The notes under the pieces: model-generated
Told to the model about the DNA's origin: nothing
The model's input: the letters and a program-made list of their open reading frames with translations, nothing else
The model's database searches: none
Part shown: positions 6,820 through 35,962 of the stretch, piece by piece
Numbering within the stretch: position 1 is the first letter of the stretch
Layout of the letters: each line of letters starts with the position of its first letter
Position numbers and translations under genes: made by a program
Source: Deltaproteobacteria bacterium
GTDB taxonomy: Bacteria > Desulfobacterota_D > UBA1144 > Nemesobacterales > UBA2774
Length of the DNA: 64,000 nt
Assembly (NCBI GenBank): GCA_040223695.1
Contig: JAVKFU010000015.1
Span: 106,534-170,533 of the forward strand
Direction: 5' to 3'

Positions 6820-7935
6820 ATGAGCGACAACGAAGTCGAGAACAACCAAAAACCGGAGCCGGATATTGGCAAGCTGGGTAAATTATTCAACGGCACTTTA
6901 AGCGTTCGGTCCCTTTCTATTTCAGGACTCTTTATACTGGCCGTTCTATATACTTTATACGTAGCGCGCGCGATTTTTATACCTATCTCCTTCGCGATTC
7001 TTTTAAGTCTTCTTCTCGCTCCTGCTGTGAACGCACTGAAAAAAATAAGGATTCCTGAAGAGCTGGGAGCCGCGGTTGTGCTGATTTTGCTCCTGGGAAT
7101 CCTGTCAGCGAGTGTTTACGTTTTTTATCAACCGGCTACGGAATGGCTGCAAAAAGCACCTCAGAGCTTCACGAAGGTAGAACAGAAACTACGCGTTATT
7201 AAAGAACCGGTGGAGAAGGTTAGTGAGGCAACAAAGAGCGTTGAGAAAATTACGGAGGTTGAAGCCGAGCCCCTGGGTTCGACCGTGGAGGTAAAAAGGG
7301 AGAGCCTGATGGATGTCCTCATCTCTCAAACCTGGGAATTTGCGTTCGGTGTCGCGACAATGATAATACTTCTTTACTTCCTGCTCGCGTCCGGCGATCT
7401 CTTCCTCAGGAAGGTTATAAACATCCTTCCGAAATTGAATGATAAAAAACGCGCGGTCGAGATAGCGCGTCATATCGAAAGCCATATTTCCAACTACCTC
7501 TATACAATTGTGACTATAAATATATTCCTGGGGGCGGCGGTGGGCGGGGCGCTGTATCTCCTTAAAATGCCTAACCCGTTCCTATGGGGCATTATGGCCG
7601 GACTACTAAACTTCGTCCTCTACCTCGGACCGACTGTGGGCATAATAATAGTGGCTATCGTGGCCTCCGCAACCTTCGATAATTTTTATCAGGTCTTACT
7701 TCCTCCTCTGGCTTATTTCATAATTAACGGGCTGGAGGGAAACTTTATAACCCCCATGATACTGGGCAGACGTCTTCTGCTAAATCCTGTCGTCATATTT
7801 CTGGCTCTGCTGTTCTGGGGGTGGATATGGGGCATACCGGGGGCGCTTATAGCCGTGCCGATTGTGGTAATAATTAAAATAATCTGTGACAACGTCGAGT
7901 CGCTCGCGGCGATTGGAGAGTTTCTGGGGAAATAA
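6820..7935 (+). CDS. AI-2E family transporter (PerM/UPF0118 permease).
   Basis: Polytopic membrane protein with the typical AI-2E C-terminal region (GLLNFVLYLGPTVG...PGALIAVPIVVIIK). Confidence 0.75.
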   Translation: MSDNEVENNQKPEPDIGKLGKLFNGTLSVRSLSISGLFILAVLYTLYVARAIFIPISFAILLSLLLAPAVNALKKIRIPEELGAAVVLILLLGILSASVYVFYQPATEWLQKAPQSFTKVEQKLRVIKEPVEKVSEATKSVEKITEVEAEPLGSTVEVKRESLMDVLISQTWEFAFGVATMIILLYFLLASGDLFLRKVINILPKLNDKKRAVEIARHIESHISNYLYTIVTINIFLGAAVGGALYLLKMPNPFLWGIMAGLLNFVLYLGPTVGIIIVAIVASATFDNFYQVLLPPLAYFIINGLEGNFITPMILGRRLLLNPVVIFLALLFWGWIWGIPGALIAVPIVVIIKIICDNVESLAAIGEFLGK

Positions 7936-8295: not shown

Positions 8296-11200
8296 TCAAT
8301 TCATAAAACCGGCACAGAAAATCTCATTCACCCGGACTTTAAACTTCTCCAGTTTAAAGGGTTTAATTATGTATGGATTTCCCGCCTCATGCAGGAAATC
8401 TATGGTTTCGTCGCTAGGGTCGCCCGTTATGAATATAAACCGGCTTGAAAGTTCCGGATTTGTTTTTTTAACTTCATAAAACAGGTTGACCCCGTTTATT
8501 TCAGGCATTTTTATATCACAGACAATCAAGTCATATTTGCTTGAATTTATTTTCTTGAGCGCCTCCCTGCCGTTTGAAGCCACGTCTACAATACTTTCTC
8601 CCTCTTCCAGAACAGCTTTCACAAGTTCTGTTACGATCGCCTCGTCCTCTACTATCAATACTCTTTTTTTCTTTAATTCTTTTGAGAAACCGTGTTCAAT
8701 TTCGTCTTTGCCGATTTGGGGCTTCGTATCCGGCTTTATTATTGGCAAGGTAATAATAAACCTTGTGCCCTCTTTACGTTTATTTTGTATCTGAATATCC
8801 CCGCCGTGTTCTTTGATAATTCCATAGGCGACGGAAAGACCGAGTCCGGTTCCTTTCCCGGGCTCCTTGGTTGTGAAAAACGGATCAAAGATTTTTCCTT
8901 TTATTTTTTCCGGAATGCCGGGCCCGTCGTCCGTAAAAGAAATTTCTATAATGCTATCTTTCTTGATTCCGGTGCTGACTTCCAAACTACCCCGGTTTTG
9001 AGATTCAACAACTGCCTGCTCTGCGTTTAATATTACGTTGGTAAAAACCTGTTGAATCTGATTCGGGTCTACCATTGTTCTCGGCAGTGCGGCGTCCAGT
9101 TTCTTTGCAATTTTTATGTTGTCCAGTTTTAGCTGGTATTCTCTGAACTCAATCGATTTTTCCAGCAGGTCATTAATGTCTTCGTAGCTTCTGACCGGAG
9201 AATATTTTCTGGAAAATGAAAGGAGTTTTTCTATAACTTTATGAACTCTCTGGGCGGAGCTATGAATGATTTCTATGGAGTCTTTATTCTGCCGGTCAAT
9301 ATCGGGCTTCGTTAACAGCCTCTGCGAATAACCTATAATCGGGGTAAGCGGATTGTTAATTTCGTGAGCTATGCTTGAAATAAGCTGACCTAAGGACGCC
9401 AGCTTCTCTGACTGAATCAACTGCTCCTGTGTTTTTTTTATCTCATCAATCATCTTCGCTTTCGCGATTGCGATTGCAATCTGGTCTCCGAGTGCGGAAA
9501 GAAAAAGTACTTCTTTTTCGCTGAATTTTCGCTCCTTATAGCTGAGAAACCATATAACGCCTATTACATTATGTTTCAGGTATATGGGCATGCCCAGAAG
9601 ACTGTGATGCCCGAGTTTTTTTCCGCTGGGTCCAATGTCGGGATCTTTCTGGGCGTCTTCGATATTTATTATTTTCCCGCTGTTTATCACTTTCCATGTT
9701 ATTCCGACAGGGCAGGGTATTTTTGCCGCTTTTTTTAAATAATAATCCGGTACATTCCTGTATGCCTCCAGTACGGCTTCTTTCCTCTCTTCATCGAGCA
9801 GGTAGATCATCGCTATGTCAACGTTTTGCATTGAGATAATTGTATCAAGCGCGACTTTGTAGACTTCTTCCAGGTCCAGAAACCTGTGAACGGCTTCCAT
9901 CAGTTTATTGAGAAGAGTTAATTCTTCCTCTGCTTTCTTTCGCATTTTATAGGCTGAAAGAATTTCCCCCGCTATGCGTAATAGTCTGATTTCTTCTTCA
10001 AGCCAGACGCGGGACCTCTGTGCGTCGTTTAAGCTCATGTATCCCCAGAGCTCACCCTTGGCTGAAATTATTGGAACAGCTATAAGGGAGCGTATATTAT
10101 TGGATTTAAAAAGTTTTTTTTCTGCATCGGCTTCAATCGGAAGGGAGTCCGTATCTTCTATCGCTATATTCTCACCGGCTGTCAGTTTCTTCATCCACCA
10201 CGGGTAAAGCGCGCAATCGATATTTTGATTAATATGCTCCTCGGAATCCGTTCCGGAATCAGACCAGGAAAACGTTTTACCTGAGGAGATGCCGGATTCA
10301 GGAAATTGATAAACGTATCCGCTGTTGACAGCGAGCGTAGTACACAGAATGTTAAGAACCCTGTTTAATCCCACATCATCGGAGCTGACAAATATTTTTG
10401 AAATTTCGGCCAGCGCGTTTTCTATCGAGAGCTGGTACCTTATCTTCTTTTCTGATTCGACGCGCTCCGTGATGTCCCTTGTAATTATTACCCCCCGAAT
10501 CTCGCCGTTACCCGTGATGAACGGATTTCCCGTGCATTCAAGCCAGTTATATTGACCGTTTTTATCCCTGGCTCTGAAAGTAGCAGTTTCGGTTGTCATA
10601 TTTAAAACAGCCCTTCTGAAAGTCTCCAGAGCGTTGGGGAGGTCGTCGGGGTGGATAAACTCAAATGCGTTTTTGCCTGTAAGCTCTGACTGCTCGTATC
10701 CCGTGAGTTCCGTGCAAGGGGGATTGACGTACAGAATGTTTCCCAGAGAATCGACCTCGTATATGAGTTCATAGCTGTTCTCCACGATGGTTCTATACCT
10801 TTTCTCGCTTTCGATTACTGCGTTTTCCGCCTCTTTAATTCGTGTAATGTCCCTGAATACGAATACTGCGCCTTTAACTTTCTTACGTCCATCCATTATA
10901 GGCGCGCAGCTTGCCGACAGGAAAAGACGCGAACCGTCACGAGATATCAGAACCGTGTCATTCGGAAGTCCGACTTTCTTCCCCATATTCATCGCTTTGG
11001 TTGCCGGATTTTTGCACGGCTTATCGTTTCGTTTATTTACAAGGCAAAAGACTTCGCTGAGAGATTTTCCCGTGGCTTCATCACAGCTCCATCCTGTAAG
11101 CTGTCCGGCCCTGTTATTGAATAGAATTATTTTCTCCCGCTTGTCAACGATAATGACTCCGTCACCGATGCTCTGAAAGGTAACGGATTGCTCGTTTATC

Positions 11201-11304
11201 CGCCTTTCGAGCTCTTTATTATTTTTCTTCAAACGGGAAACCTGGCGGCGTAGGTCCCCGGTCTCGCTGATCAGCTGTGCTTTGGATATATCTTCATATG
11301 CCAT
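8296..11304 (-). CDS. Hybrid sensor histidine kinase with multiple PAS and GAF domains and a C-terminal receiver domain.
   Basis: PAS S-boxes, GAF regions, HisKA ([18 protein letters not shown]), HATPase_c (DDGPGIP...[18 protein letters not shown]) and a receiver domain ([10 protein letters not shown]...[15 protein letters not shown]). Confidence 0.85.
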
Positions 11305-11653
11305 TAATCTCGCTCCATTTCCAGGGCCGGGGGGGCAAATTTATTGTTTACTGTATTCCAATCTTGCCGGCAAGTTCCGAAATTATTGCTGAGGGCGTAT
11401 TTTTAATTGAATTTTAAAATGCAGCGTTAATTGTCTATTTACAATAATTAAGGCTACTTTCGGCGATTGTCAACAGATTTAAAACTGTGGAAGCAGTGAT
11501 ATAGTGATGAAAAAGAAGGCGCTTTATCGGGTTTTCTGCCCGATACTTCTGGCGCTATTTCTGAAACAGCTGCGAATTTATTAACGGCCTGTATTTATTA
11601 TGCTTTAACTACCGCTGTAAAATCCGATGTATAATTGATTTTAGAGATGCTTT

Positions 11654-12568
11654 ATGCGAGTGTGGCTCCGTATGCCCGACGAATCGATAAATAGATTGTT
11701 ACAAACTCTTAGAGAGAATACCCCTGCCGCAGGTAAGCCTATAGAGCAGCTGCGTGCGGATTTCGAAAGATTCTATTTGGGGTTTCAAACCGGGCAAAAT
11801 CCGCGAATAAAGGAATTCACGATAAACGATATACCTTCATTCTGGATCGAAGCCCCCGGTGCGGATGAAAAGCGGGTCATCCTCTTCTTTCACGGCGGCG
11901 GGTTTACAATCGGCTCCACCAGGGATCACGCTGACCTTTGCAGGCGATTGTCGGCTGCCTCCGAGGCCAGGGTGCTGAGTATAGACTATCGGCTGGCCCC
12001 TGAACATATTTTTCCCGCTGCTCTCGAAGACTGCGTTGCCTCTTACAACTGGCTCTTGAACGAAGGGTTCGAAGGATCACGGATTATACCGGTCGGTATT
12101 TCCGCCGGAGGGACACTCGTTCTATCCACCCTTCTTTCTCTCAGGGACGGCGGGATGGATTTACCCGCTGCCGCCTGCTGTATGTCTCCCGCGGTCGACA
12201 TGTTGTTTCAGGGCGATTCCGTAACCGGCAATATGGGAAAAGACTGGATCACCGCTGACAGACTGAATTCGGTAAGGAATGCCTATCTTGGCGGGCGGGA
12301 CCCGAAAGAGCCGCTCGTTTCCCCGCTTTACGCTGACCTGAGAGGGTTGCCGCCAATATTGATTCAGATCGGAAACCATGAGCTGCTCCTCGATGATAAC
12401 CTTAAATTCGCGCTGCAGGCGAGGAGACAGGGAGTCGATCTTACTTTTGAAATATGGAGCGGTATGATCCATTGCTGGCAGATTTTCGCGAGCGAGTTAA
12501 AAGACGGGCGTGATGCGATTGACAGCATTGGCAAATACATAAAGAGAAAATTCAGCAATCTGTCGTGA
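11654..12568 (+). CDS. Alpha/beta-hydrolase fold-3 esterase/lipase (HSL family).
   Basis: Oxyanion motif HGGGF, nucleophile elbow GISAGG and a C-terminal His region. Confidence 0.8.
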   Translation: MRVWLRMPDESINRLLQTLRENTPAAGKPIEQLRADFERFYLGFQTGQNPRIKEFTINDIPSFWIEAPGADEKRVILFFHGGGFTIGSTRDHADLCRRLSAASEARVLSIDYRLAPEHIFPAALEDCVASYNWLLNEGFEGSRIIPVGISAGGTLVLSTLLSLRDGGMDLPAAACCMSPAVDMLFQGDSVTGNMGKDWITADRLNSVRNAYLGGRDPKEPLVSPLYADLRGLPPILIQIGNHELLLDDNLKFALQARRQGVDLTFEIWSGMIHCWQIFASELKDGRDAIDSIGKYIKRKFSNLS

Positions 12569-12985
12569 AGCATAATTAATGAAGATGCCGAGTTCTATTT
12601 AATTCACTTGGTCATTAAAAAAGAATCCCTCCCGGCGAGGCTTTCCGTCAATCAGGGAATAGTAAGCACCGGCATGTGTTTTATCGTGAGGCGGATTATT
12701 CAGGCGTGTCGGCGAAAGCAAAGGGAGTTGTGAACTCGCGCTCTAGGGGTCCCGGGTTATATTCGTCAGTGAAACTTATACGGGCAATGCAGTTTCATTG
12801 AAAGCCGCGGTCTGGTTTTGGCGGGAAACCGGGATACAGAACAAAGGGATCCGGCCACGCACATAAGACCGGATTTCAGGCTTGATTTCTCCAGCAAATC
12901 TTTCTTTGGTCCGTTGATTAAATTATAATTAAGCGCTGTATTATTATGTTCGGACGATATAATTCCGGATTATAAATTACGTACA

Positions 12986-14308
12986 ATGTGCAAATTTCTA
13001 TCCGTCTTTCTTATACTTGCCCTATTCTCATGCGGGGCGAATTATACTCCCCGCGCGCCTGAAGAAGTTCCTTTCCTCAAAAGGGCGCAGACCCAAAGCA
13101 GGGGAGGGCTCACTGTAACCGCCGCCGTTTTGAGTCGGGAGGAGAGTGAGGAGGTCTTCGGTGTCGACCTTGCGGCCAAAGGTATACAGCCCGTGTGGCT
13201 TGAAATAGAGAACAACACTGATGCGCCGTTCGCGTTTATGCCCATCGCGCTCGACCTGGATTATTTCTCCCCGAACGAGGTTTCCTGGCTTAACCATTTC
13301 AAATTCAACCGGTCGTTAAATAGAAAAATGGACGAGCATTTCTCTGAACACAGCATAGAGGTCGAGTACATAATCCCGGGCGAAAAAGATAAGGGTTTTG
13401 TATATTCAAACCTGGATCCGGGCATAAAATACGTAAACGTAACACTGTATCAGCTTGACCGCATAGAGAGGTTCGTGTTCTTATTCGAAGTCCCGGGCAT
13501 ACAGCCCGACTATCAAAACGTCGATTTTGAAGAGCTTTACTCAAACGATGAGATAGTAAATATTGAAAACGAAAACGACCTCAGGGCGGTATTGGAGAAT
13601 ATTCCCTGCTGTACTGTAGATAAGAAGGGGGAGGGTGAAGGGCACCCGGTTAACATCATTCTTATCGGTGATCCCGATGATACGTTCTCTGGAATAATAC
13701 GCCGCGGGTGGGACGTTACCGAGGCCGATACCGATTCATTCGATATAGATCTCAGGAAAATGTTCTCGACCGCGCGTTACAGGACATTCCCTATGACTAG
13801 CCTCCATATGTACGGGCGAAGACAGGACATTAGCCTTCAGAAATCACGACACGCGGGACATACGCCCTACCGCCAGCGGAACCAGATGCGCCTCTGGCTG
13901 ACCCCGTTCAGGTACAGGGGAGATAGTGTCTGGATCGGTTCTGTGAGCAGGGACATAGGCTCCGATTTAAGGGTGAGGAAGTACTGGTTCGCGGCGCAGG
14001 AGATAGACCCCGATATCGACGAAACTAGGGATTATGTAGTAGAGGACCTCGTACTGTCTCAGCAAGTACACAAGCTTGGTTATGTGAAAGGCACAGGAGC
14101 TGCAAACTCCGAGAATCCCCGTACAGACCTTTTCGGCCACCCCTGGTGGTCAGACGGATACCGGGCCGTATTTCTATTCGGTAAGGATTCTATCACCCTG
14201 GGCGACATGGAATTTTTTCCCTGGGAAGATATTCATTCAGTTCCTTCCCTGGAGCTTGAATTCGGCAATCGGAATGAAAGAAATGACGACAGGGGGTTAG
14301 GGAATTAA
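12986..14308 (+). CDS. Lipoprotein of unknown function (paralog A of a tandem pair).
   Basis: Signal peptide with lipobox (LALFSCG). Shares blocks with the next gene: EVPFL.R..TQ..GxTVTAAVLS..ES.EVFGV.LA.KGIQPVW, PCC, IRRGWDVTE and R.RN..RLWL.P.RY.G..VWIGSVSRDIGS. Confidence 0.6.
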   Translation: MCKFLSVFLILALFSCGANYTPRAPEEVPFLKRAQTQSRGGLTVTAAVLSREESEEVFGVDLAAKGIQPVWLEIENNTDAPFAFMPIALDLDYFSPNEVSWLNHFKFNRSLNRKMDEHFSEHSIEVEYIIPGEKDKGFVYSNLDPGIKYVNVTLYQLDRIERFVFLFEVPGIQPDYQNVDFEELYSNDEIVNIENENDLRAVLENIPCCTVDKKGEGEGHPVNIILIGDPDDTFSGIIRRGWDVTEADTDSFDIDLRKMFSTARYRTFPMTSLHMYGRRQDISLQKSRHAGHTPYRQRNQMRLWLTPFRYRGDSVWIGSVSRDIGSDLRVRKYWFAAQEIDPDIDETRDYVVEDLVLSQQVHKLGYVKGTGAANSENPRTDLFGHPWWSDGYRAVFLFGKDSITLGDMEFFPWEDIHSVPSLELEFGNRNERNDDRGLGN

Positions 14309-14309
14309 G

Positions 14310-15719
14310 ATGACCGCTGTTCGCGGAGACACTCAGGTATTGAGGCTGTTCTTTATATTCTTGATCGGCTGTCTGCCTTTAATGAAAGTCGGTTGCGCCT
14401 CCTATTGCGCCACACAGAGCGAGGTGGAGAACGCTATGTTCAGCACGCCTCCGGCAAAGGGGTGTCGGGTCTATTCTCCCTCTCCCGACCCGTTGAGGGA
14501 AGTCCCTTTTCTCATGCGCAGCGAGACCCAGACCGAGGACGGCATAACCGTGACGGCGGCAGTGCTTAGTGACCCGGAGAGTCGGGAGGTTTTCGGCGTC
14601 AACCTTGCAAAGAAAGGAATCCAGCCGGTATGGATCAGAATCGAAAACGATACCGGGGCTCCCGTCACTCTTGTACATGTGGGAATAGACCCCGCTTATT
14701 TCTCCCCGAACGAAGCTGCTAACAGGAACTATATTTTTGCGAGTCCCGTTAACGATGAAATCAACGAATACTTCAACGAGCACGGAATCGGAAGAATGAT
14801 CCCGGCTGGCGGGGAATTATCGGGTTTCTTTTACACAAACTGGGACCCGGGCGTGAAATACCTGAACGTTAGCGTGTTCGGAGAGGACAGGGAGGAAAAC
14901 TTCCTCTTCTATTTAGAGATACCCGGGATAACGATAGACTTTCAGCGGGTGGATTGGGATTCCATTTACGGAGAGGAGGAGTTCGTGGACTACCAGAACG
15001 AAGACGACCTCCGCCGCGCGCTTGAGAGCGTGCCCTGCTGTTCGACGAGAAAAGACGGCACGGGAAAGAACGATCCGCTAAACTTTTTCGTCATTGGGGA
15101 GAGCGATCAAATATTGTCCGCTTTCATCCGGCGCGGATGGGATGTGACTGAGCCCATTACAGCGGGATCCGGGTGGAGGGCGTTCAAAGCCTTTTTCTCC
15201 GGGGCGAGATACCGTACTTCTCCAATGAGTAGCATATATGTATACAAAAGAGCTCAGGACGTAGGCTTTCAGAAAGCAAGATCCACAATACATGAGAGGA
15301 ATCATCTCCGGCTATGGCTTATGCCCGTAAGATACAAGGGCATGGATGTCTGGATCGGGTCTGTGAGCCGTGACATCGGCTCATACCTGACTATCAGGAC
15401 CCCATGGTTAACTGCGCACGCAATCGATCCGGATATTGATGAGGCAAGGGTGTACGTCGAGCAGGATCTTCTCTTCTCGGGGGCGGTCAGAAAATTCGGG
15501 TATGTTAAAGGGATAAAGCCCGCCACCCCGGAAAACCCCCACCGGAATTTTATGAAGCAGCCCTACTGGACCGACGGGTACAGGGCTGTGTTTATTATCC
15601 AGGAGGATCCCACGCACCTGAGTGAGCTCGAATTCTTCGACTGGGAATGGGCGGGTGAGAATTCTCGGGAAATGATCGAATACATTAAAAACCGAAACAA
15701 TAAAAAGACAGAAAACTGA
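14310..15719 (+). CDS. Lipoprotein of unknown function (paralog B of the tandem pair).
   Basis: Collinear similarity to 12986..14308, with hydrophobic N-terminus (LRLFFIFLIGC) that may be a signal peptide/lipobox. It starts 2 nt after the stop of paralog A. Confidence 0.6.
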   Translation: MTAVRGDTQVLRLFFIFLIGCLPLMKVGCASYCATQSEVENAMFSTPPAKGCRVYSPSPDPLREVPFLMRSETQTEDGITVTAAVLSDPESREVFGVNLAKKGIQPVWIRIENDTGAPVTLVHVGIDPAYFSPNEAANRNYIFASPVNDEINEYFNEHGIGRMIPAGGELSGFFYTNWDPGVKYLNVSVFGEDREENFLFYLEIPGITIDFQRVDWDSIYGEEEFVDYQNEDDLRRALESVPCCSTRKDGTGKNDPLNFFVIGESDQILSAFIRRGWDVTEPITAGSGWRAFKAFFSGARYRTSPMSSIYVYKRAQDVGFQKARSTIHERNHLRLWLMPVRYKGMDVWIGSVSRDIGSYLTIRTPWLTAHAIDPDIDEARVYVEQDLLFSGAVRKFGYVKGIKPATPENPHRNFMKQPYWTDGYRAVFIIQEDPTHLSELEFFDWEWAGENSREMIEYIKNRNNKKTEN

Positions 15720-16089
15720 ACATCTGGTTGAATCTCTTTCCCGGAAAAATGATACAGACCGCAAACTGAAGTTACACGGGAGGATGAATAAGCCGTGACA
15801 TTGCAACAAAAAATCTTTACCGTTCGCCTGCTTCTGCCCGCAGGGCTTATGTCTGATGTCCGAATTTAAGACAATTGTCGTCGAGAGCTGCGCGACCGGT
15901 GCGGGCTGATTACCGGCGCAAGCTGAATTTTTGAAATACGGTGAATGCATGAACCTGCTGCTCTAATGGCTGTATGATTTCACTGCATATTGTTTTACAC
16001 GCGTGGCGGTATTGAATTTCCTCTTACGGGGTAAAGAACTCGCCCTCCTGACTCAGTTGGTATGCTGCTTGCAAGTTATTTCATGATAA

Positions 16090-16671
16090 ATGACCGGATA
16101 CCCAAAAGAGCTTGTCCTGAAGGATAAAACCAGGGTTATCACCAGACCTGTAAGTAAGAATGATCTGGAGTTTCTGGTGAAATTTTTCTCGACGATTCCG
16201 AAGACGGACCTCCTCATATACAAGGACGATGTAACTAAATGGGAGGGCCTTCAGGATTGGTTTATCAGCTCGAACTACAAAAAGGTGCTGGAACTCGTAT
16301 GTACAAATAACGAGGATATTATCGCGAAAGGTACATTGCATACCGAGGGGATTTACTGGCCTCACGCCGCTGAGGTAAAGTTAATGGTTCATCCGAGTTA
16401 CAGGGGAAAGGGATTGGGCTCACAATTATTCAATTTGCTTCTCTACGAGGGTTTGAAGCACCGTTTCCAAAAAATTATAGTCAGATATGTTCCCGACAAC
16501 CTTAGTTTTACCCGTATTCTGGATCATTACGGGTTTAATCCTGAAACCGTGCTCAACTGTTATGTTGTAGATGAGATTACAAAGGAGAAGAAAGATCTTG
16601 TAATTGCGTCCTATGACCTTCAGAACTGGGAGAGGAGATTCGAGTTCTATACTTTCATCTACACGAAGTAA
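16090..16671 (+). CDS. GNAT family N-acetyltransferase.
   Basis: Acetyl-CoA binding motif (HPSYRGKGLGSQLF). Confidence 0.65.
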   Translation: MTGYPKELVLKDKTRVITRPVSKNDLEFLVKFFSTIPKTDLLIYKDDVTKWEGLQDWFISSNYKKVLELVCTNNEDIIAKGTLHTEGIYWPHAAEVKLMVHPSYRGKGLGSQLFNLLLYEGLKHRFQKIIVRYVPDNLSFTRILDHYGFNPETVLNCYVVDEITKEKKDLVIASYDLQNWERRFEFYTFIYTK

Positions 16672-16772
16672 AAGATATGCGATTCAACTAAATTGTAAGC
16701 AAAGTTATAAAGTGATATTCTGATAATTAATCTGAAAGAATTCAGGACGGTTACACTCGCCAAGGACTTGTT

Positions 16773-18689
16773 ATGAAGAAAAGAATTACCAAAAAAGATG
16801 AGCCTCCGGGCGCGATTGAGTCCCACCGGACGGCTGGGGACCCCGAAACAGAATTCCTTGAGAATCAATACAGCTTTATTGTTGAGTCCGTTCCGAGCGG
16901 CATAGTAATGACCGATAATAAGGGGAAGATTATTTTCGTTAATTCACTCGTAAACAGGATGTTCGGATATGAGGAAAGCGAGCTGGTCGGCAGAAACATT
17001 GATGAGCTCGTACCGGACAGATATAAGAAGGGGCATGCCGCGCATAGGAAATCGTTCTTGTCGGCGCCCGAGACAAGACCTATGGGCAAAGGGAGGGATC
17101 TTTTCGCCAGAAGAAAGAACGGAAGCGAATTTCCTGTGGAGATAGGCCTTAATCCTGTGAAAACCGAGAGAGGATTGGTGGTCGTGAGCACAATAGTGGA
17201 TATCACTGACCGAAGAGCCGCTGAAATAAAATTGAAGGAGGAGCAGGACAGGACGCAAAGGTACCTTGACGTGGCGGAGGTTATTTTTCTGGGGCTTGAC
17301 GGCAAGGGTATTGTAACGCTCATAAACAGGAAGGGCGCAGAGATTCTCGAGTGCTCCGAGGAAAAAATATTAGGAAAGAGCTGGTTTGATAAATTCATCC
17401 CTCGCGAGGAACGTAACGAAGTATTAGAGGTTCATAGGAGAGTGATGAGGGGAGAATCCATAAACATTGCGTTTCATGAAAACAAGATAATCTCCGAATC
17501 GGGGAAGAAAATCGACGTGCTGTGGCACAACACCGCAATAGAGGGTGAAAATGGCAGAGTTATCGGTACTTTGAGCTCCGGGGTCGATATTACGGACCGG
17601 AAATATACCGAAAGGCGGCTTCAGGAAAGGGAAGAGAGATTGCGCAGTATCATGGATAATACTACCGACGCGATTCTGGTATTTGACAACGACGGCCTTA
17701 TTGAAACGATAAACAAAGCGGCTCTGAAGCTATTTGCCATTAATGACGAAGATGAAATCAAAAATATCCATGAGATAATTACACCCGAGCACAGGGACAG
17801 CTTTGCAGAGAGGCTTGAGAGGTCCAGAAACGGGGCCGCGATTTCGGACTATGAAACGGAGATGATCAAGAAAGACGGCTCCAGGATTCCCGTGAGTATC
17901 AGTCTTGTTTACATGGATCTGGATCGAGGCAAGTATATCGAGACAATAAGAGATATTTCTGCCAGGATTTCTATGCGCAAAAAGATCATAGAGCTCGAGA
18001 AATCTCAAATAATCGGGAAGATGGCGGAAGGTTTCGCTCACCATATGGGTACTCCTCTCGCTTCGATGCTTCTCAGGGTTCAGATGCTGAAAGAAGACAT
18101 ACCGTCTCTCCCGGAATGTGAGAGTGTCGGGGAAAAACTGGACTCTATAGAGAGGCAGATTTTGTATGGTCAGAAGGTGATTCAAAGGCTTTTGAGGTTT
18201 GTCAGCCAGCCGGGCAGTGAGAAAAGCTCGGAAAAAGTCTCTTCGTTGCTCGGTGAGTCGATCGATATGGTGAGACCCCTTCTCAAAAAAAAGATGATAG
18301 AGGTCGAGCTTGATGTTGAAGAGGGCTTGAGCATTTATGTGGACTCAAATCTGATAAATCTTGTCTTTACCGATATTATCATAAACGCTGTGGACGCTAT
18401 GCCTGACGGGGGAGTCCTTACGGTTGCAGCAGCGAACGATTATGATAACGGGTTAGCGAATATCAGAATCAATGATACGGGTAAAGGTATTTCGAAAGAG
18501 ACGATTTCCTTTGTTTTCGAGCCTTTTTTTACAACCAAGCCTGCGGGAAAGGGGACAGGGCTCGGACTTACAGTTGCCAAAAGGATTGTAAATGATCACG
18601 GAGGGGAAGTGAGTATAAGAAGCATGGAGGGGAAGGGTACGACGGTTATAATAAAACTTCCTTTATCCGCGGAGGGATATTCGTCTTGA
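16773..18689 (+). CDS. PAS-domain sensor histidine kinase.
   Basis: Several PAS repeats, HisKA (EGFAHHMGTPLASM) and HATPase_c (NDTGKGIS...GTGLGLTVAKRIVNDHGG). Confidence 0.85.
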   Translation: MKKRITKKDEPPGAIESHRTAGDPETEFLENQYSFIVESVPSGIVMTDNKGKIIFVNSLVNRMFGYEESELVGRNIDELVPDRYKKGHAAHRKSFLSAPETRPMGKGRDLFARRKNGSEFPVEIGLNPVKTERGLVVVSTIVDITDRRAAEIKLKEEQDRTQRYLDVAEVIFLGLDGKGIVTLINRKGAEILECSEEKILGKSWFDKFIPREERNEVLEVHRRVMRGESINIAFHENKIISESGKKIDVLWHNTAIEGENGRVIGTLSSGVDITDRKYTERRLQEREERLRSIMDNTTDAILVFDNDGLIETINKAALKLFAINDEDEIKNIHEIITPEHRDSFAERLERSRNGAAISDYETEMIKKDGSRIPVSISLVYMDLDRGKYIETIRDISARISMRKKIIELEKSQIIGKMAEGFAHHMGTPLASMLLRVQMLKEDIPSLPECESVGEKLDSIERQILYGQKVIQRLLRFVSQPGSEKSSEKVSSLLGESIDMVRPLLKKKMIEVELDVEEGLSIYVDSNLINLVFTDIIINAVDAMPDGGVLTVAAANDYDNGLANIRINDTGKGISKETISFVFEPFFTTKPAGKGTGLGLTVAKRIVNDHGGEVSIRSMEGKGTTVIIKLPLSAEGYSS

Positions 18690-20041
18690 GCACTGAAAAA
18701 TTCAGGGTACTTGTAGTAGACGATGACAAGGAATTTGTCGAAGCGGTCAAGGAGCTTCTCAATCGTAATAATTACGATGTAATTACCGCCTATTCCGGGG
18801 CGGACGCGCTTGAAAAAGCCCGGGAAGTACCGGATATAAAGCTGGCGCTTCTCGATCTGGTAATGCCTCTTATGGACGGCTTTGCACTGCTTGAAAAGCT
18901 CAGAGACTTGATCCCGGAGTTAACCGTTATAATCGTTACGGGTCAGGGTACGGTTCAGGCGGCTGTCGATGCGATAAAACGCGGCGCTGCGGATTTCATT
19001 ACCAAGCCTTTTGATAAAGATGTACTTTTGAAAAAACTGGATGTTGTCAGAAAGGCTCAGGAGCTTGAGAGCAGAGTGGGGACATTGAAGGAGCTCCTAT
19101 CGGAAAAGTACGGATTCGATAACATCATAAGCAGCTCGAAGGTGATGAAAACCGTTTTTGAAAAGGCCTCGGCCGCAGCCCATAGCAACGCGCCTGTATT
19201 TATTGTGGGGGAGACGGGAACGGGGAAAGAATTATTAGCCAAGGCCATACATCTAAGAGGCGGGAGAGCCGCACATCCTTTTGTGGGGGTGAATTGCGGT
19301 GCTATACCGAAAGAGCTCCTTGAGTCGGAACTTTTCGGTTACCGGAAAGGGGCTTTTACCGGAGCGGTAAGGGATCACGAAGGGCTTTTCATTGCCGCCG
19401 ATAAAGGAACGATATTTCTCGATGAGATAGGTGAAATGCCCAAAGACCTTCAGGTGAGGATGTTGAGGGTGCTTGAAGAATACAAAGTCAGGCCCATAGG
19501 ACATACGAAGGAGATAGCGCTTGATGTGAGGGTTGTAGCGGCGAGCAATCATACAATAGATGAGCTGAAGAATAAATATTTGAGGGAGGATCTTTTTTTC
19601 AGGCTTGCCGTAATAGTCATCGAGCTGCCGCCGCTCCGGGAAAGGAAAGGTGATATACCCTTGTTAATCGATCACTTTATCGGAAGGTTTAATAACAAGT
19701 ATTCAAAGAGAATAAGGGGGCTCTCGGAGGGAGCTTTCAGTTCACTCTATAATTATCATTTCCCGGGGAACATAAGGGAGCTCGAGAATTTGATTGAAGG
19801 CATAATAGCTGTCACGTCCCTGAGCAAGAACACTATTACCGAAAAGGACCTGAAGGCGCATCTCCTCTGGCAGCAGTCCAAAACCCCGGAGCACCAGCTC
19901 CTCTCACTGGATAGGCTCGAAAAATTCGCGCTTGAGCAGGCCCTTCGGGAATCCAGGGGGAACAAGTCAAAGGCTGCGGAGCTCCTGGGCATATCAAGAG
20001 ATACTCTTTACAGAAAACTAAAGCTCTATAAAGTCGATTGA
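18686..20041 (+). CDS. sigma-54-dependent two-component response regulator (NtrC family).
   Basis: REC domain (VLVVDDD...DLVMPLMDG), AAA+ sigma-54 activator (GETGTGKELLAKAIH, ESELFGY, GAFTGA) and Fis HTH. The TTG start overlaps the upstream kinase stop (TTGA). Confidence 0.85.
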   Translation: MSTEKFRVLVVDDDKEFVEAVKELLNRNNYDVITAYSGADALEKAREVPDIKLALLDLVMPLMDGFALLEKLRDLIPELTVIIVTGQGTVQAAVDAIKRGAADFITKPFDKDVLLKKLDVVRKAQELESRVGTLKELLSEKYGFDNIISSSKVMKTVFEKASAAAHSNAPVFIVGETGTGKELLAKAIHLRGGRAAHPFVGVNCGAIPKELLESELFGYRKGAFTGAVRDHEGLFIAADKGTIFLDEIGEMPKDLQVRMLRVLEEYKVRPIGHTKEIALDVRVVAASNHTIDELKNKYLREDLFFRLAVIVIELPPLRERKGDIPLLIDHFIGRFNNKYSKRIRGLSEGAFSSLYNYHFPGNIRELENLIEGIIAVTSLSKNTITEKDLKAHLLWQQSKTPEHQLLSLDRLEKFALEQALRESRGNKSKAAELLGISRDTLYRKLKLYKVD

Positions 20042-20303: not shown

Positions 20304-20318
20304 TGGCACCCGCTTTGC
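20304..20318 (+). promoter_or_regulatory. sigma-54 (RpoN) -24/-12 promoter.
   Basis: TGGCAC-ccgct-TTGC matches the TGGCAC-N5-TTGC consensus with correct GG/GC spacing. It is 52 nt upstream of the ATG at 20370 and is followed by a GAGGAGG RBS. Confidence 0.7.
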
Positions 20319-20369: not shown

Positions 20370-21230
20370 ATGGTTAAAAGGACTGTTTTATTTTCATTCT
20401 TGATTGCCGTGCTAGGTTTTTGTATTTGCGGTGTGTATGCATATGATGCATCCGCACAGGGGCAGGAAAACATGAAGGCGGAAATACAACAGCTCAAGCA
20501 GATGATGGGTCAGATGCAGGGCAGAATGGGGGAGATGCAGAGCAGAATAGATGAGCTTGAGCAAAAGAACATCATGCTCGAGCAGCAAGCTCAGGAGAGA
20601 GCAGAGGCAGCGGTTATAGTTGAAGAAACGTCCGTGACCGAAAAGACCGCAGATGAGCCTTTCGGTGGTGAGTTTGCCGTTACGATAGGCGCTCAGACAG
20701 GTCCTTTTAAGACAGGCACGGGTTTTTATTTGTCAGCCGAGCTTGGAGTTCCTTTATATAAAAACCTGGGGCCGGGAAAATTACTCGGTATTATGAGCTT
20801 CGGATGGGCAAGAACGGATGATGACATAACATTCGAGCCCACCGTCAACGCGATCGCGCCCGGCACACTTCCTACCCAGACAAGTGTAAATCTGGATACG
20901 GCAACAATTCTTCTGGGGCTAAAGTATAAACTTGAGGCTCACAGGATAGTTCAGCCTTTTGTTTTGGGAGGGCCGAGCATGAATCTGTTCTTCAATGAGA
21001 GCGACCCGGGAAGCCAAGTGGGAGGCATTGCTCCTCAGCCCAATATACTCCAGAAAAGAGGATTTCCGTCAGGTCAGGGAAATGCCGAGCTGGGAATTAC
21101 ACTTGGCGGAGGCGTTGATTTTAATGTCACACACAAGATATTTGTAGGGGCGCAGGGGTTATTTAACTGGGTCGACAGAGACAACGGTGCTTTCGGAACC
21201 TATGGCGGAAGGTTAGGATTCAGGTTTTAG
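20370..21230 (+). CDS. Outer-membrane beta-barrel protein with an N-terminal coiled-coil segment.
   Basis: Signal peptide, a Q/M-rich coiled coil and alternating amphipathic strands that end in the typical OMP C-terminus ..GGRLGFRF. Confidence 0.6.
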   Translation: MVKRTVLFSFLIAVLGFCICGVYAYDASAQGQENMKAEIQQLKQMMGQMQGRMGEMQSRIDELEQKNIMLEQQAQERAEAAVIVEETSVTEKTADEPFGGEFAVTIGAQTGPFKTGTGFYLSAELGVPLYKNLGPGKLLGIMSFGWARTDDDITFEPTVNAIAPGTLPTQTSVNLDTATILLGLKYKLEAHRIVQPFVLGGPSMNLFFNESDPGSQVGGIAPQPNILQKRGFPSGQGNAELGITLGGGVDFNVTHKIFVGAQGLFNWVDRDNGAFGTYGGRLGFRF

Positions 21231-21568: not shown

Positions 21569-22285
21569 CTATCTGGTCTGATGTGTATGATGAGCGTGTT
21601 TATCGCTCGTTGAAGGGATGAAGTGAATGGAGAAATTAACCAGCCCCACAAGAATTAAGATTATCCCCGCTACAACTGTCAGTCTCCTCGGCGCTCTCCG
21701 CATGCCCTTCTTGTATATAAAAGGGAATGCGGATAAGGCGGGTACTGTTCCGAGCCAGAATATGAAGAGTACCGCCGCTCCGTAGAGCGGGCTTTTTGTC
21801 GCTACCGACCCTATTACGAATATGTAGACCCAGCCGCAGGGGATGAATCCGTTTACAATTCCGAGTGTAAGGGACGCCGTTGGCTTGCTCTGCGTTAAGG
21901 ACCATTTTGCCGGGAGCCGGAGGAGTGAAGAGATGAACTTCGCCGGTATCAACTCAAGCGGCTTTCCCGTAATAAGCTTATAGCCTGTATAGATAAGGAA
22001 TGCCGATATTATTATTGCAGAAAATGTAGCTACAACGGGGTAGTTATTTGAGAGAAAAGCTTCCCCCAGGAGTCCCGCAAGTGCGCCGAGCGCCAGGTAG
22101 CTAAACAGCCGCCCTAGGTGATAGAGGCTCAGGTAGCCGAAATTATTGTTCACCGTAACGGCTATGGGCCCGCACATCGTAACACAGTGCGAGCTCCCGA
22201 GCAGGCTCGCTATAAAAACACCCAGCGGCACCGATAAAAAGGACCACTGCGCTATTAAATCATTAAATAAACCTGGGTCCGACAA
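21569..22285 (-). CDS. DsbD_2/UreH-like polytopic membrane protein. It is the last gene of the cco operon.
   Basis: About 6 TM helices with a conserved SSHCVTMCGPI motif characteristic of the cytochrome-biogenesis-like DsbD_2 family. The family assignment is from memory. Confidence 0.5.
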   Translation of the reverse strand: MSDPGLFNDLIAQWSFLSVPLGVFIASLLGSSHCVTMCGPIAVTVNNNFGYLSLYHLGRLFSYLALGALAGLLGEAFLSNNYPVVATFSAIIISAFLIYTGYKLITGKPLELIPAKFISSLLRLPAKWSLTQSKPTASLTLGIVNGFIPCGWVYIFVIGSVATKSPLYGAAVLFIFWLGTVPALSAFPFIYKKGMRRAPRRLTVVAGIILILVGLVNFSIHFIPSTSDKHAHHTHQTR

Positions 22286-23687
22286 GTTTTACGTCCTCGC
22301 CCGTTTTAATTGTATTGTCCTTAGGGTCAATGAAATTGAGTCTTATTGACCGTGTCCCCTGACTGCCCGTAACATCTTGAGGAAACTTTACGAAAAAGTG
22401 GACAGTAGCGTCCTTTCCCGCCTCAAGATTAATTATCTCGTTCTGCGAAACGATCTCGACGTTTTTTTTCTTCCATTCCTGAGGCAGCGTCATCTTGAGG
22501 CTTACATTGTCAAAAGTCTGATTTTTCATGTGCATTTTAAAGTGGTTTATTATTTGCTCGCCCTGCTCGTTTTTAATCACCTGAAAGGGAGAATCCTTGC
22601 CTCTTAGAACGGTGATGATTATATCCTCACGCTTCGATACGGAAAAAACGAGAGCCGCCATTACGGCGGCGAGCAGCACGGTATATATCGCTACTCTCGG
22701 TCTGAACCATTTCGTGGTCAATCTCTCGAGGCTGTTTCCCGTTGCGTATCTGATCAACCCCTTCGGCTTGTCGATCTTTTCCATTACCTCATCACAGGCG
22801 TCTATACAGGCGGTGCAGCCTATGCACTCGAGCTGAAGGCCGTTTCTTATGTCAATCCCCGTGGGACATACCGACACGCACTTATAACAATTTATACAGT
22901 CGCCCTCGGCCTCACCGTGCCCGGTTTTCCCCCTCCGGGGCTCGCCCCTGACCGGGTCGTATGAAACCGTAAGCGAATCGTCGTCCATGAGCACCGACTG
23001 GAACCTGCCGTACGGGCACATTATGATGCAGAACTGCTCCCTGAACCAGCCGAAGTCGAACAGAAAAACCGCTGTCAGAAAGGCCATTATGACAAAGATG
23101 GTCCAGTTCTGCTGCGGGTTGTGCCGGGTCATTTCCACAAGCCTGTCGGCGCCTACAAAATAGGCGAGAAAGCTGTGAGCGATAATCAGGCTCACTATAA
23201 GAAAGAGGGACCAGAGCACAGAGAGTTTAAAGAATTTTTTTATTCCCCAGGGCGCCCTTGCGAGGTTACGCTGCTGGATGTGGCTCCCGATAATCCAGTA
23301 CTCAAGCCTTCTGAATATACCGTCTATAAAAACAGTCTGAGGGCACGCCCATCCGCACCATACCCTTCCCCACACGGCGGTTATGAACGCAAGCCCTATT
23401 GTCAGAAACGCCAGTATAAAAAATATGAGAGGGGCGTCATGCGCGAAAAAAGTGAGACCGAATATAGAAAATTTTCTTTCTCCGATATTGAGGAGCAGGG
23501 CTTGATGTCCCCCGATTTTGATCCACGGAAGAAGGAGGAAAAAGATAACCAGAAAAATCTCGGTTACCGTTCTTGCTTGTCTCCAGAAACCCTTTACCCG
23601 CTCAGGGAATATAAAAACACGCTTGCCGGTCTCGTCCATTGTAGCCGGGCGTTCATCAGGCAGTTGTCTCTGATCCAGTACTTTCAT
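22263..23687 (-). CDS. ccoG: cbb3 oxidase accessory protein CcoG/FixG (membrane-bound 4Fe-4S ferredoxin).
   Basis: Motifs GRVWCGWACPQ and two ferredoxin CxxCxxCxxxCP motifs (CINCYKCVSVCP, CIGCTACIDAC). The start is chosen at the ATG that overlaps the ccoP stop (ATGA). The 39-aa Arg-rich extension in the ORF track is probably spurious. Confidence 0.8.
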   Translation of the reverse strand: MKVLDQRQLPDERPATMDETGKRVFIFPERVKGFWRQARTVTEIFLVIFFLLLPWIKIGGHQALLLNIGERKFSIFGLTFFAHDAPLIFFILAFLTIGLAFITAVWGRVWCGWACPQTVFIDGIFRRLEYWIIGSHIQQRNLARAPWGIKKFFKLSVLWSLFLIVSLIIAHSFLAYFVGADRLVEMTRHNPQQNWTIFVIMAFLTAVFLFDFGWFREQFCIIMCPYGRFQSVLMDDDSLTVSYDPVRGEPRRGKTGHGEAEGDCINCYKCVSVCPTGIDIRNGLQLECIGCTACIDACDEVMEKIDKPKGLIRYATGNSLERLTTKWFRPRVAIYTVLLAAVMAALVFSVSKREDIIITVLRGKDSPFQVIKNEQGEQIINHFKMHMKNQTFDNVSLKMTLPQEWKKKNVEIVSQNEIINLEAGKDATVHFFVKFPQDVTGSQGTRSIRLNFIDPKDNTIKTGEDVKLVGPRFI

Positions 23688-24253
23688 TTGCGCTCTATCT
23701 TCTCTCCCTGAGGAGCTTTCGCCCCGGGGGGATCGGTCCCCTGCAAACCATGTACGTAAACCGCGGTGCTCTCTATTACGTCCGCGGGTATGACGCCTTT
23801 CCACGGAGGCATACCCTTGTCGGGCACACCCTCGTTCACGACGGTAAGTATGGACGATATAGATCCGTCTCCGTGTATCCAGTACTCATCCGTCAGGTTA
23901 GGCCCGATAAGTCCCTGCCCCTTATCCCCGTGGCAGGGCATGCATTTGGCCATGAATTCCGCCTTCCCCTGCTCGGTAACTTCCCGGTTTGTAACCAGAG
24001 CGACCAGGTCCTCTTCGGTTTTTTCCCGGGCGGACCCGAGGGCCTCCTGCTGCTCCTCCCTTATAACACTCATCTCGCTCGCCAGCTCCTCGTCCAGCGT
24101 CGGTCCCCCCATAAACTGATAATAGACGAAATAGATAACCGCGAAAATTATGGTTATATAAAAGGTCGCAAGCCACCAGCCGGGGAGGGGATTATTAAGC
24201 TCTCTTATCCCGTCGTACTCATGATCTTTAATTAATTCGTCTTTTTCGGTCAT
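23684..24253 (-). CDS. ccoP: cbb3-type cytochrome c oxidase subunit CcoP/FixP, apparently mono-haem.
   Basis: CcoP N-terminus (DHEYDGIRELNNPLPGWW), one CMPCHG haem motif and a GMPPW Met-ligand region. It is only 189 aa. Confidence 0.75.
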   Translation of the reverse strand: MTEKDELIKDHEYDGIRELNNPLPGWWLATFYITIIFAVIYFVYYQFMGGPTLDEELASEMSVIREEQQEALGSAREKTEEDLVALVTNREVTEQGKAEFMAKCMPCHGDKGQGLIGPNLTDEYWIHGDGSISSILTVVNEGVPDKGMPPWKGVIPADVIESTAVYVHGLQGTDPPGAKAPQGEKIERK

Positions 24254-24393
24254 TGATTTTCCTCCTTTTTTGGCTCACCCTCATCTTCGAGGGGTAGCAT
24301 CTCCATTTCATGAATCTCCTCTTTCGGTCTCTTGAGAGCCCATATCACAAGAACGACAAATGCCGTTAAAAAGATAATCAGGGCTATTATCAC
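24250..24393 (-). CDS. ccoQ: Small CcoQ-like single-TM subunit. It is below the ORF-track size cut-off.
   Basis: A GTG-initiated 47-codon ORF (IIALIIFLTAFVVLVIWALKRPKEE...) lies between ccoNO and ccoP. Its stop overlaps the ccoP ATG (ATGA). Confidence 0.5.
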   Translation of the reverse strand: MIIALIIFLTAFVVLVIWALKRPKEEIHEMEMLPLEDEGEPKKEENQ

Positions 24394-24422
24394 TATTTCC
24401 GCATTCTGAAAATACGATAGAG

Positions 24423-26585: not shown

Positions 26586-26767
26586 TTATCCTTTTCCTCC
26601 TTCGAATCTTGATTTCTTGGTTCGGTCTCGTAATCATCTATTAACATTCTGTGACCGGGGGTCTTGAGGTCGTCCCACTGCCCCTTTCGTGCGGCCCATA
26701 TGAAGGCAAGCAGGAAAATTAACGCCATGGCTATAGAAATTCCAAGCGTCAAGAAAATTATATTCAC
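26582..26767 (-). CDS. ccoS: cbb3 oxidase maturation protein CcoS/FixS.
   Basis: A 61-aa single-TM protein (FLTLGISIAMALIFLLAFIWAARKGQWDDLKTP). Overlaps both neighbours by 4 nt. Confidence 0.75.
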   Translation of the reverse strand: MNIIFLTLGISIAMALIFLLAFIWAARKGQWDDLKTPGHRMLIDDYETEPRNQDSKEEKDK

Positions 26768-35671: not shown

Positions 35672-35962
35672 GTCGTTTTAGTGTTCCGGTGCTATTGTTA
35701 GCGCGTATATGAAGCACATAGTACAAGCAGGTGCTTTTCTGATCAATATCCGGAAAAATTTCCCTGTTAAAAAACCCTGCATTGTTGATTTATTCACAGA
35801 TGCTGCTGTTCGATTTCTTACAATTACATATAGTCCGAACATCTGGCTTTTTGTCTAATCCGCTGTCAAAACTCGCTTTATCCTTCTTCAATAATATGGC
35901 ACGCCTATTGCACTAACAATATAATAAGGAGCTTTTAAATTTACACATAGGAGGTAGTAATT

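Follow-up and report, generated by a model that had tools for sequence, protein, structure and literature searches.

Proteins with an LssY_C domain (PF14067) form a very large family of bacterial envelope proteins, of which little has been described beyond the name. In Legionella pneumophila, LssY is named among the components of the lssXYZABD locus with no function attached to it, so that membership in the family conveys no mechanism. Many LssY_C proteins are of a short type (240-300 amino acids with an N-terminal transmembrane anchor), exemplified by proteins of Rhizobium (WP_012763435), Nostoc (WP_179070001) and Palleronia (WP_317377258). A general principle that bears on paralogous pairs of such genes is the enzyme/pseudoenzyme heterodimer, in which one paralogue is active and the other is not. 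Here we analyse a tandem pair of LssY_C genes, called P1 and P2 below, in a 64,000-nucleotide stretch of a Deltaproteobacteria bacterium (contig JAVKFU010000015.1, positions 106,534 to 170,533; hereafter the window, in whose coordinates positions are given). The two genes encode longer, two-domain lipoproteins, and comparison with their relatives leads us to propose that their products probably work together as an envelope heterodimer.

The products of P1 and P2 (440 and 469 amino acids) are 50% identical (198/395 identities, 66% positives, BLASTP E 1e-138). The match is collinear over both halves of the proteins, from just past the signal peptides to near the C-termini, and involves no low-complexity sequence. 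The blocks EVPFL, TVTAAVLS, PCC, IRRGWDVTE, [QE]RN..RLW and SVSRDIGS are present in both, as is the longer block RN..RLW...VWIGSVSRDIGS. The tandem paralogy and the collinear motifs described in the initial annotation are thus borne out in full, and the possibility that it had named against itself, a similarity confined to low-complexity segments, does not apply. With respect to the family, the same annotation was only partly right. It had called the family unrecognised while allowing for a distant LssY_C-like relationship; the hint at LssY_C was correct, but the relationship is not distant. P1 matches PF14067 with 106.3 bits (E 1.9e-30; positions 10-182 of the 188 in the model, aligned to residues 213-383) and P2 with 143 bits (E 1.1e-41; model positions 7-187, residues 244-424), four to six times the gathering threshold of 25 bits and over nearly the whole model. 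The public records identical to P1 (P0097) and P2 (P0001) already bear the name "LssY C-terminal domain-containing protein" (Deltaproteobacteria bacterium), and all 81 of the aligned homologues match PF14067 and no other Pfam family. Both proteins therefore clearly belong to LssY_C, an assignment that is unambiguous but does not lead to a well-characterised family, this one being catalogued and functionally unstudied. No NCBIfam model matches P1 or P2, and no homologue of solved structure was found for them by single sequence or by profile. A PADLOC search with P1, P2 and the GNAT protein encoded downstream yielded no match at E<=0.01, and an anti-phage defence system was rejected.

The likeness to the short-type proteins extends to the domain itself, to the anchoring in a membrane and to a series of motifs, GDP.N, GW, GR.QD, R.H.R.W, W.GS..D, PD.D..R and TDG. 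Sixteen residues are common to P1, P2 and the Rhizobium, Nostoc and Palleronia proteins: N258, W277, R314, Q316, D317, R330, R334, W336, W348, G350, D355, D375, D377, R380, D422 and G423. The short type differs in having neither the N-terminal beta-sandwich nor the Cys-Cys pair described below, and in carrying Phe at R354 and Glu at Q321. It is also much the larger family (at least 8000 matches), is not in tandem in the examples seen, and has zwf, glucosidase and OmpA genes as neighbours. In two unrelated plasmids, of Nostoc (L090) and Palleronia (L093), the short-type gene lies just downstream of zwf, with a glucosidase gene between the two in L093 and a PLD-type phospholipid synthase and phosphatases nearby in L090, so this subfamily may act in a different functional context.

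P1 and P2 share one layout (Table 1): a lipoprotein signal, an immunoglobulin (Ig)-like beta-sandwich N-domain, a linker with a vicinal Cys-Cys pair and an alpha+beta LssY_C domain. This layout, like the lack of type I secretion genes around them, sets them apart from Legionella LssY, even though their C-terminal halves match the LssY_C model end to end. When the N-termini are inspected for an n-region, an h-region and a lipobox of the form [LVI][ASTVI][GAS]-C, both proteins are strongly predicted to be lipoproteins; the signal had been correctly noticed in P1, but it is not a feature of P1 only, since the N-terminus of P2 is also of the lipoprotein type. P1 begins with MCKFLSVFLILALFS-C16, a canonical lipobox. 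P2 has a basic n-region, a hydrophobic h-region (...LRLFFIFLIG-C21) and a second candidate lipobox, KVG-C29, whose Cys aligns with the lipobox Cys of P2 orthologues (VTGC-GTYC, FWGC-ASYC, IAGC-SPYC); its AlphaFold2 model has a helix at residues 7-26 followed by a low-confidence linker. The lipidated Cys of P1-type proteins is an invariant column of the 81-sequence alignment, and the same column in P2 is the internal C52 (AKGC-RVYSP). By this alignment C52 is evidently a relic of the ancestral lipobox Cys, which suggests that P2-type proteins have gained a new signal and lipobox, together with a tether of ~23 residues, ahead of the ancestral one. In a few lineages (Myxococcaceae) a transmembrane anchor takes the place of the lipobox.

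The N-domains of P1 and P2 are 51% identical and have no Pfam match at E<=0.1; their invariant residues are Q105, W108, N113, D127, Y130, E135 and K183. At the level of the fold they resemble the DUF4352/YcdA-YjhA lipoproteins and the PCuAC domains, from which they differ in sharing just 9-14% of their sequence and in lacking a Pfam match. A PCuAC-type copper-chaperone reading was rejected: the Cu-binding His/Met are not present, and no His, Met or Cys ligands are conserved. The Cys-Cys pair is kept in 109 of 121 family members, and in mature P1 it accounts, together with the lipidated Cys, for all of the cysteines. A Cys-His hydrolase built on the PCC motif was likewise discarded, there being no invariant His, no such pair in the short-type proteins, and a pair retained even in degenerate copies. 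The full AlphaFold2 model of P2 has a predicted local distance difference test score (pLDDT) of 88.4 and a predicted template modelling score (pTM) of 0.81, with a pLDDT of 87 for the LssY_C domain. P2 ends in a basic helix for which P1 has no equivalent; a similar Lys-rich tail is found in the orthologue P0016.

The relatives of this pair were surveyed with one genome per species, which gave at least 519 of them. The closest among the matches listed come from metagenome-assembled genomes (MAGs) of Candidatus Dadabacteria / Thermodesulfobacteriota, at 67-74% identity, and the copy-1 orthologues of the Dadabacteria clade are 57-68% identical to P1. Other lineages with relatives are the Desulfobacterales, Nitrospirota, Myxococcota, anammox Planctomycetota and the Alpha-, Beta- and Gammaproteobacteria; Dechloromonas denitrificans ATCC BAA-841 is a cultured carrier among them, and a search of plasmids and chromids adds Paraburkholderia terrae, P. 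caribensis, Cupriavidus metallidurans CH34 and Caballeronia. The N-terminal domain of the two-domain type has more than 1100 cluster representatives. In a profile search of the open reading frames (ORFs) of ~85 loci, about half of the loci carried two adjacent genes on the same strand and the others only one, the pairs occurring in Thermodesulfobacteriota, Desulfobacterales, Nitrospirota-associated genomes, Alpha-, Beta- and Gammaproteobacteria and anammox bacteria.

In neighbour-joining trees, the copy-1 proteins of the Dadabacteria group form one clade (97% bootstrap) and its copy-2 proteins another (100%), so the pair must be older than the Dadabacteria clade. Across the family, by contrast, the copies cluster by lineage (Dadabacteria copies 1 and 2 together, 74%; Desulfobacterales-type copies 1 and 2 together, 69%) and never across lineages (0% for copy 1 with copy 1 or copy 2 with copy 2), a pattern that calls for duplication or homogenisation more than once; the pair thus appears to have had two or more independent origins, with the caveat that the trees are rough, their lineage-wise bootstrap values moderate, and that gene conversion could mimic independent duplication. 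Moreover, natural fusions of two copies exist (P0035, P0121, P0122 and P0123, of 800-850 amino acids). Recurrent duplication, kept adjacency and fusion are what would be expected of a homo-oligomer that has turned into a hetero-oligomer. On these grounds, and on that of the degenerate partners described next, we infer a P1-P2 complex and consider it rather probable that the two proteins form a heterodimer. The spacing of the genes is in keeping with a joint product: the stop codon of P1 (TAA, 14306-14308) and the ATG of P2 (14310) leave a gap of 1 nt, not the 2 nt first counted, and this, with the Shine-Dalgarno-like stretch AGGGGGTTAGGG at the 3' end of P1, makes translational coupling of P2 to P1 likely. 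A weak hairpin past the P2 stop codon may be where the two-gene unit ends, in a region where terminator-like sites are no more numerous than expected from shuffled sequence. In one locus of a Dadabacteria MAG (L018, 5656-6946) copy 1 is split into ORFs of 146 and 305 amino acids, by a frameshift or as a pseudogene, or else through an assembly error.

Further evidence lies in which residues are lost when one copy degenerates. Per-group residue counts show no loss of an invariant residue from either window copy or from the clade to which they belong. In copy 1 of the Desulfobacterales type, however, D278 is variable, E281 is replaced by Ala, Q321 by Arg, D355 by Ile or Glu and D373 by Glu, and G357 is deleted, while the divergent copy 2 of the Beta- and Gammaproteobacteria has lost W277, E281, R330, R354 and D355. 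What these copies keep is R314, D317, R334, W336, D377, E378, R380, D422, G423 and the whole N-domain signature. In the fusion P0035 the second half has degenerated at those same positions of loss (IRRNFRFTP in place of IRRGWDVTE, QVSSPLG in place of ISRDIG). Such selective loss in one paralogue looks like the pairing of an active subunit with a pseudo-subunit, and it points to D278, E281, Q321, R330, R354, D355 and D373 (P2 numbering) as the likely functional site. If the strand register is read off the hairpin 330-342/345-360 and the strands beside it, the sheet residues would plausibly lie on one face of a beta-sheet, with the helix end that carries D278/E281 nearby. The conserved Arg and Asp blocks that had originally been compared with an enzymatic or ligand-binding core do resemble a functional core, but the Ser supposed to belong to it (that of SRDIG) varies between Ser and Thr across the family. 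The candidate site is made up of several Arg, several acids, Gln and Trp and contains no Ser, His, Cys or Lys that is invariant; such a composition is easier to reconcile with the recognition of an anionic group, whether or not a metal takes part, than with a classical nucleophilic hydrolase. Like the enzyme/pseudoenzyme heterodimers, the family shows recurrent duplication, one copy deprived of a particular group of residues and, in some cases, fusion of the two copies; the window pair differs from them in that both copies keep the full set, which places it at a symmetric stage.

A possible indication of the substrate comes from the genes that accompany LssY_C in other lineages. The metagenomic carboxylesterase MGS0156 hydrolyses tributyrin, olive oil, polylactic acid (PLA) and polycaprolactone (PCL), that is, it has lipase and polyesterase activity, and it has been noted as an alpha/beta hydrolase outside the known families (PMC5341072). 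A lipoprotein esterase homologous to it (PDB 5d8m, E 1e-64; ~350-420 amino acids, with a GYSKG motif and no Pfam or NCBIfam model) is encoded beside LssY_C genes in 11 of 80 genome loci, and also in all three of the betaproteobacterial plasmid loci (P. terrae, C. metallidurans CH34 and Caballeronia). The lineages concerned are the Beta- and Gammaproteobacteria and several Desulfobacterales, in which the same two-domain LssY_C genes share one operon with the esterase gene; the latter is usually co-directional with them, overlapping or within tens of nucleotides, and is sometimes itself duplicated. Other alpha/beta hydrolases flank LssY_C genes in L001 (Lipase_3), L047 and L051 (both Abhydrolase_3), in the Caballeronia locus L092 ("alpha/beta family hydrolase") and in the window itself (the Abhydrolase_3 gene at 11654-12568). 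These associations are a moderate hint that the LssY_C lipoproteins act on, or alongside, envelope lipid or ester substrates, a reading that is nevertheless rather doubtful. The fusion of PAP2 to LssY_C, which would be a lipid-phosphate link, did not occur in the best 120 of the at least 8000 short-type relatives and is not used as evidence.

Starting from the observed paralogy, family membership, domain architecture, conservation patterns and gene neighbourhoods, we favour the following scheme. In a Candidatus Dadabacteria / Thermodesulfobacteriota-like host, a two-gene and probably translationally coupled operon would give rise to two paralogous cell-envelope LssY_C lipoproteins, each tethered to the membrane by its N-terminal lipid anchor. 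P1 and P2 would associate 1:1 in a heterodimer descended from an ancestral homodimer. The putative LssY_C site, binding or catalytic, would consist of D278/E281 at the helix end and Q321, R330, R354, D355 and D373 on the sheet, and it would recognise an anionic group, for example a phosphate or carboxylate on a lipid or ester substrate of the envelope, perhaps together with a metal ion. As neither subunit in the window has lost any part of the site, both would be active, and their function would be tied to that of the lipolytic enzymes accompanying LssY_C genes elsewhere. Taken as a whole (coupled operon, envelope heterodimer, and a site for an anionic lipid or ester) this remains a tentative proposal, plausible rather than probable.

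Besides the roughness of the trees, a number of observations weigh against this scheme. Many lineages have a single copy, so pairing is not obligatory. No Ser, His, Cys or Lys nucleophile is invariant family-wide, and the candidate site might serve for binding alone, or even have just a structural part to play. The model of the LssY_C domain has no solved structural analogue, hence no fold relative that would point to a chemistry, and a full-text literature search gave nothing on LssY function beyond listings of the locus. Apart from the pair itself, the family as a whole has no conserved neighbour; the GNAT, PAS histidine kinase and sigma-54 regulator genes next to the pair are found there in the Dadabacteria clade only. 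Furthermore, in contrast to the operons just described, the 64-kb window (tblastn with three esterase queries) and the whole Dadabacteria clade have no MGS0156-type gene. The esterase encoded just upstream in the window is an unrelated, HSL-type Abhydrolase_3 protein that is not syntenic in relatives; it has no signal peptide and the spacer between it and P1 is not conserved, so the adjacency may be coincidental.

In view of these points one may ask whether the proteins are catalysts at all. They could be non-catalytic accessory or scaffold proteins that act on a partner at the membrane by holding, folding, inhibiting or positioning it (for instance the adjacent lipase of other lineages, or an envelope polymer), the conserved Arg, Asp and Trp then being a binding surface. 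We regard this as somewhat unlikely: when one paralogue loses a few charged residues together and retains the others, the pattern is the one classically seen in enzyme/pseudoenzyme pairs, most loci, the window included, lack an esterase partner, and the short-type family, with its at least 8000 matches, occurs in unrelated contexts. At the opposite extreme, the two-domain LssY_C lipoproteins might constitute a class of envelope enzymes not recognised before, of a fold that the PDB does not contain, forming heterodimers that are active/active here and active/pseudo-subunit elsewhere, whose Asp/Glu/Arg site, with no classical nucleophile, would modify anionic lipids or esters or hand them over in concert with lipoprotein lipases. 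This bolder version of our scheme is, as it stands, an unlikely conjecture.

It is also conceivable that P1 and P2 are independent and partly redundant, each acting as a monomer or homodimer and perhaps differing in substrate or in distance from the membrane. The retention of every invariant residue in both window copies would be accounted for in this way, as would the many genomes in which one copy suffices; the extra tether of ~23 residues and the basic C-terminal helix of P2, neither of which P1 has, would then reflect a differentiated placement. What makes such independence improbable, in our opinion, is that duplication has recurred independently with order and adjacency kept, that the genes have repeatedly been fused, that a degenerate copy is maintained under conservation in other lineages and that the gap between the genes is a single nucleotide, all of which are more typical of obligate partners. 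The heterodimer accordingly remains the reading of the pair that we prefer.

The pair is preceded by a long spacer that the initial annotation gave as 416 bp (12570-12985) and took as a possible site of regulatory RNA or regulatory elements. The long spacer is real, but it comprises 417 nt (12569-12985), and the regulatory suggestion fared badly. It is true that the spacer is unusually long, that its G+C content (~0.44) is below that of the flanking genes and that AT-rich palindromes lie near 12919-12985. Nevertheless, Rfam gave no match at E<=1 over 11000-17000, and the folding energy of the leader (-111.6 kcal/mol) is that of shuffled sequences (-113.2 +/- 6.6 kcal/mol, z = +0.24). The leader cannot be aligned to those of relatives, whose spacers measure 32-307 nt, although the available relatives are at most ~74% identical even at the protein level, and blastn of the leader against plasmids gave no match. 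It contains no sigma-70-like or sigma-54-like consensus site and no ORF longer than 43 amino acids; a decayed gene was sought by tblastn with the upstream proteins of relatives, with nothing significant. No TGG-N9-TGC sigma-54 site precedes the pair here or in 10 relatives, and sigma-54 control of the pair was rejected, the conserved sigma-54 promoter of the region belonging to the downstream GNAT operon. Six related loci (L002, L004, L006, L008, L010 and L012) have in common a sigma-70-like block, TTGAAT-N17-TA[AG]AAT, 117-152 nt before the first LssY_C start, which implies a 5' untranslated region (UTR) of ~100-140 nt in those loci; this block is not present in the leader of the window. Finally, the gene upstream of the spacer differs between the window and all relatives, which marks the leader as a synteny breakpoint. 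It is consequently very unlikely that the pair is controlled from here by a cis-regulatory RNA, by a small RNA or through binding sites for a regulator; the leader, in which the promoter and 5'UTR of the pair presumably lie, is best read as ordinary promoter/UTR DNA at a synteny breakpoint rather than as structured regulatory RNA. Least credible of all is a role as accessory to a type I secretion system, as for LssY in an lssXYZABD-like RtxA secretion locus: despite the shared Pfam domain and a JGI label on one homologue ("LssY-like putative type I secretion system component"), the pair is not flanked by genes for an ABC transporter (such as LssB), a membrane-fusion protein (such as LssD) or a TolC-like protein, nor do such genes recur in the ~85 loci, no type I secretion families occur among 250 neighbour proteins of related loci, and the role of LssY in Legionella is itself not established in the paper that lists the locus members.

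Table 1. Features of the LssY_C gene pair, its surroundings in the window, and esterase genes at related loci (L numbers; positions there are those of the locus).
Feature	Position	Strand	Basis or remark
HSL-type Abhydrolase_3 esterase, immediately upstream of the leader	11654-12568
Intergenic spacer upstream of P1, 417 nt	12569-12985	+	between ORFs
P1, 440-aa LssY_C-domain lipoprotein, copy 1 of the pair	12986-14308	+	ORF, PF14067 match
P1 signal peptide, lipobox L-F-S-C16	12986-13033	+	sequence MCKFLSVFLILALFSC
P1 N-terminal beta-sandwich domain (~residues 20-175)	13043-13510	+	homology to modelled P2 domain
P1 vicinal Cys pair C208-C209 (PCC motif)	13607-13612	+
P1 LssY_C domain (residues 213-383)	13622-14134	+	Pfam envelope
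Purine-rich Shine-Dalgarno-like stretch AGGGGGTTAGGG	14291-14302	+	within P1 3' end, 7-18 nt before P2 ATG
P2, 469-aa LssY_C-domain lipoprotein, copy 2 of the pair	14310-15719	+	ORF, PF14067, AlphaFold2 model
P2 signal peptide with its lipobox (LIGC21 or KVGC29), then ~23-residue tether to C52	14310-14396	+
P2 N-terminal Ig-like beta-sandwich domain (residues 55-205)	14472-14924	+
P2 vicinal Cys pair C243-C244	15036-15041	+
P2 LssY_C domain (residues 244-424)	15039-15581	+	Pfam envelope; carries candidate functional residues
P2-specific C-terminal basic helix SREMIEYIKNRNNKKTEN	15663-15716	+	helix 452-468 in model
Weak terminator-like hairpin, ~108 nt past P2 stop	15827-15844	+	consensus scan
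Sigma-54-type promoter TGGTATGCTGCTTGC before GNAT gene	16058-16072	+
GNAT acetyltransferase, downstream of the pair	16090-16671
Triple-PAS histidine kinase	16773-18689
Sigma-54-dependent response regulator	18686-20041
MGS0156-type esterase genes	L088 9470-10621; L080 9479-10648; L087 9380-10639; L092 about 8350-9579
Further MGS0156-type copies	L033, L040, L050, L067, L069, L070, L074, L075, L079, L082

What was known already is the LssY_C family and its naming at NCBI. The architecture, the want of a solved analogue for the domain, the pattern of pairs, fusions and degenerate partners, and the association with lipases are new. For a family of this size a first function would be useful and, if our proposal is true, thousands of "LssY C-terminal domain-containing" proteins would gain an annotation. 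The comparison yields handles that can be tested, namely a candidate residue site, likely obligate partners and a recurring operon partner of known lipase activity, and such genes are carried by hosts in culture (C. metallidurans CH34, Paraburkholderia, Caballeronia and D. denitrificans). As for the window, its annotation is corrected, the suggestion of a regulatory RNA is removed, and the locus takes its place as an ordinary member of the family.

The other genes in the vicinity of the pair encode, besides the upstream esterase, the GNAT protein, the PAS histidine kinase, the sigma-54 regulator, an outer-membrane protein (OMP) and a cbb3 oxidase. A TGGTA[TC]-N5-TTGC element stands at -31/-32 from the GNAT ATG in all 11 of the Dadabacteria-clade loci examined, which suggests that the operon of GNAT, PAS kinase and regulator genes is sigma-54 dependent and possibly autoregulated. 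This trio has its own sigma-54 promoter and the leader of the pair has none, so the neighbourhood does not imply co-regulation. Upstream, an AI-2E family transporter gene lies within ~5 kb of the LssY_C genes both in the window (6820-7935, +) and in the P. terrae plasmid locus L088 (1595-2677, -), probably by coincidence. In some Dadabacteria the pair is preceded by a gene for a protein of 306-330 amino acids with no Pfam match (L004, 6510-7430; L006, 6436-7428), which ends in ...GVAFQF, a typical C-terminus of an outer-membrane beta-barrel, and is not homologous to the product of ORF 20370 described next.

Directly after the sigma-54 response regulator gene, and therefore a likely target of that regulator, is ORF 20370-21230 (+). 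It encodes a secreted protein of 286 amino acids with a coiled-coil N-terminal part, a below-threshold match to the OMP barrel PF13505 and the terminal sequence ...LGFRF, and a perfect sigma-54 consensus, TGGCACCCGCTTTGC, stands 52 nt before it (20304-20318, +). A second perfect consensus, TGGCACGCCTATTGC, is found at 35897-35911 (+), before an ORF of 215 amino acids (35963-36610) that has no Pfam match. The cbb3-type oxidase cluster (21569-29217, -) contains an ORF of 720 amino acids (24423-26585, -) in which COX1 (CcoN) and FixO (CcoO) are fused. The fused CcoN/CcoO gene is adjoined by genes for FixG-like, DsbD_2 and FixI-like P-type ATPase proteins, and the same fusion and synteny recur in L004.

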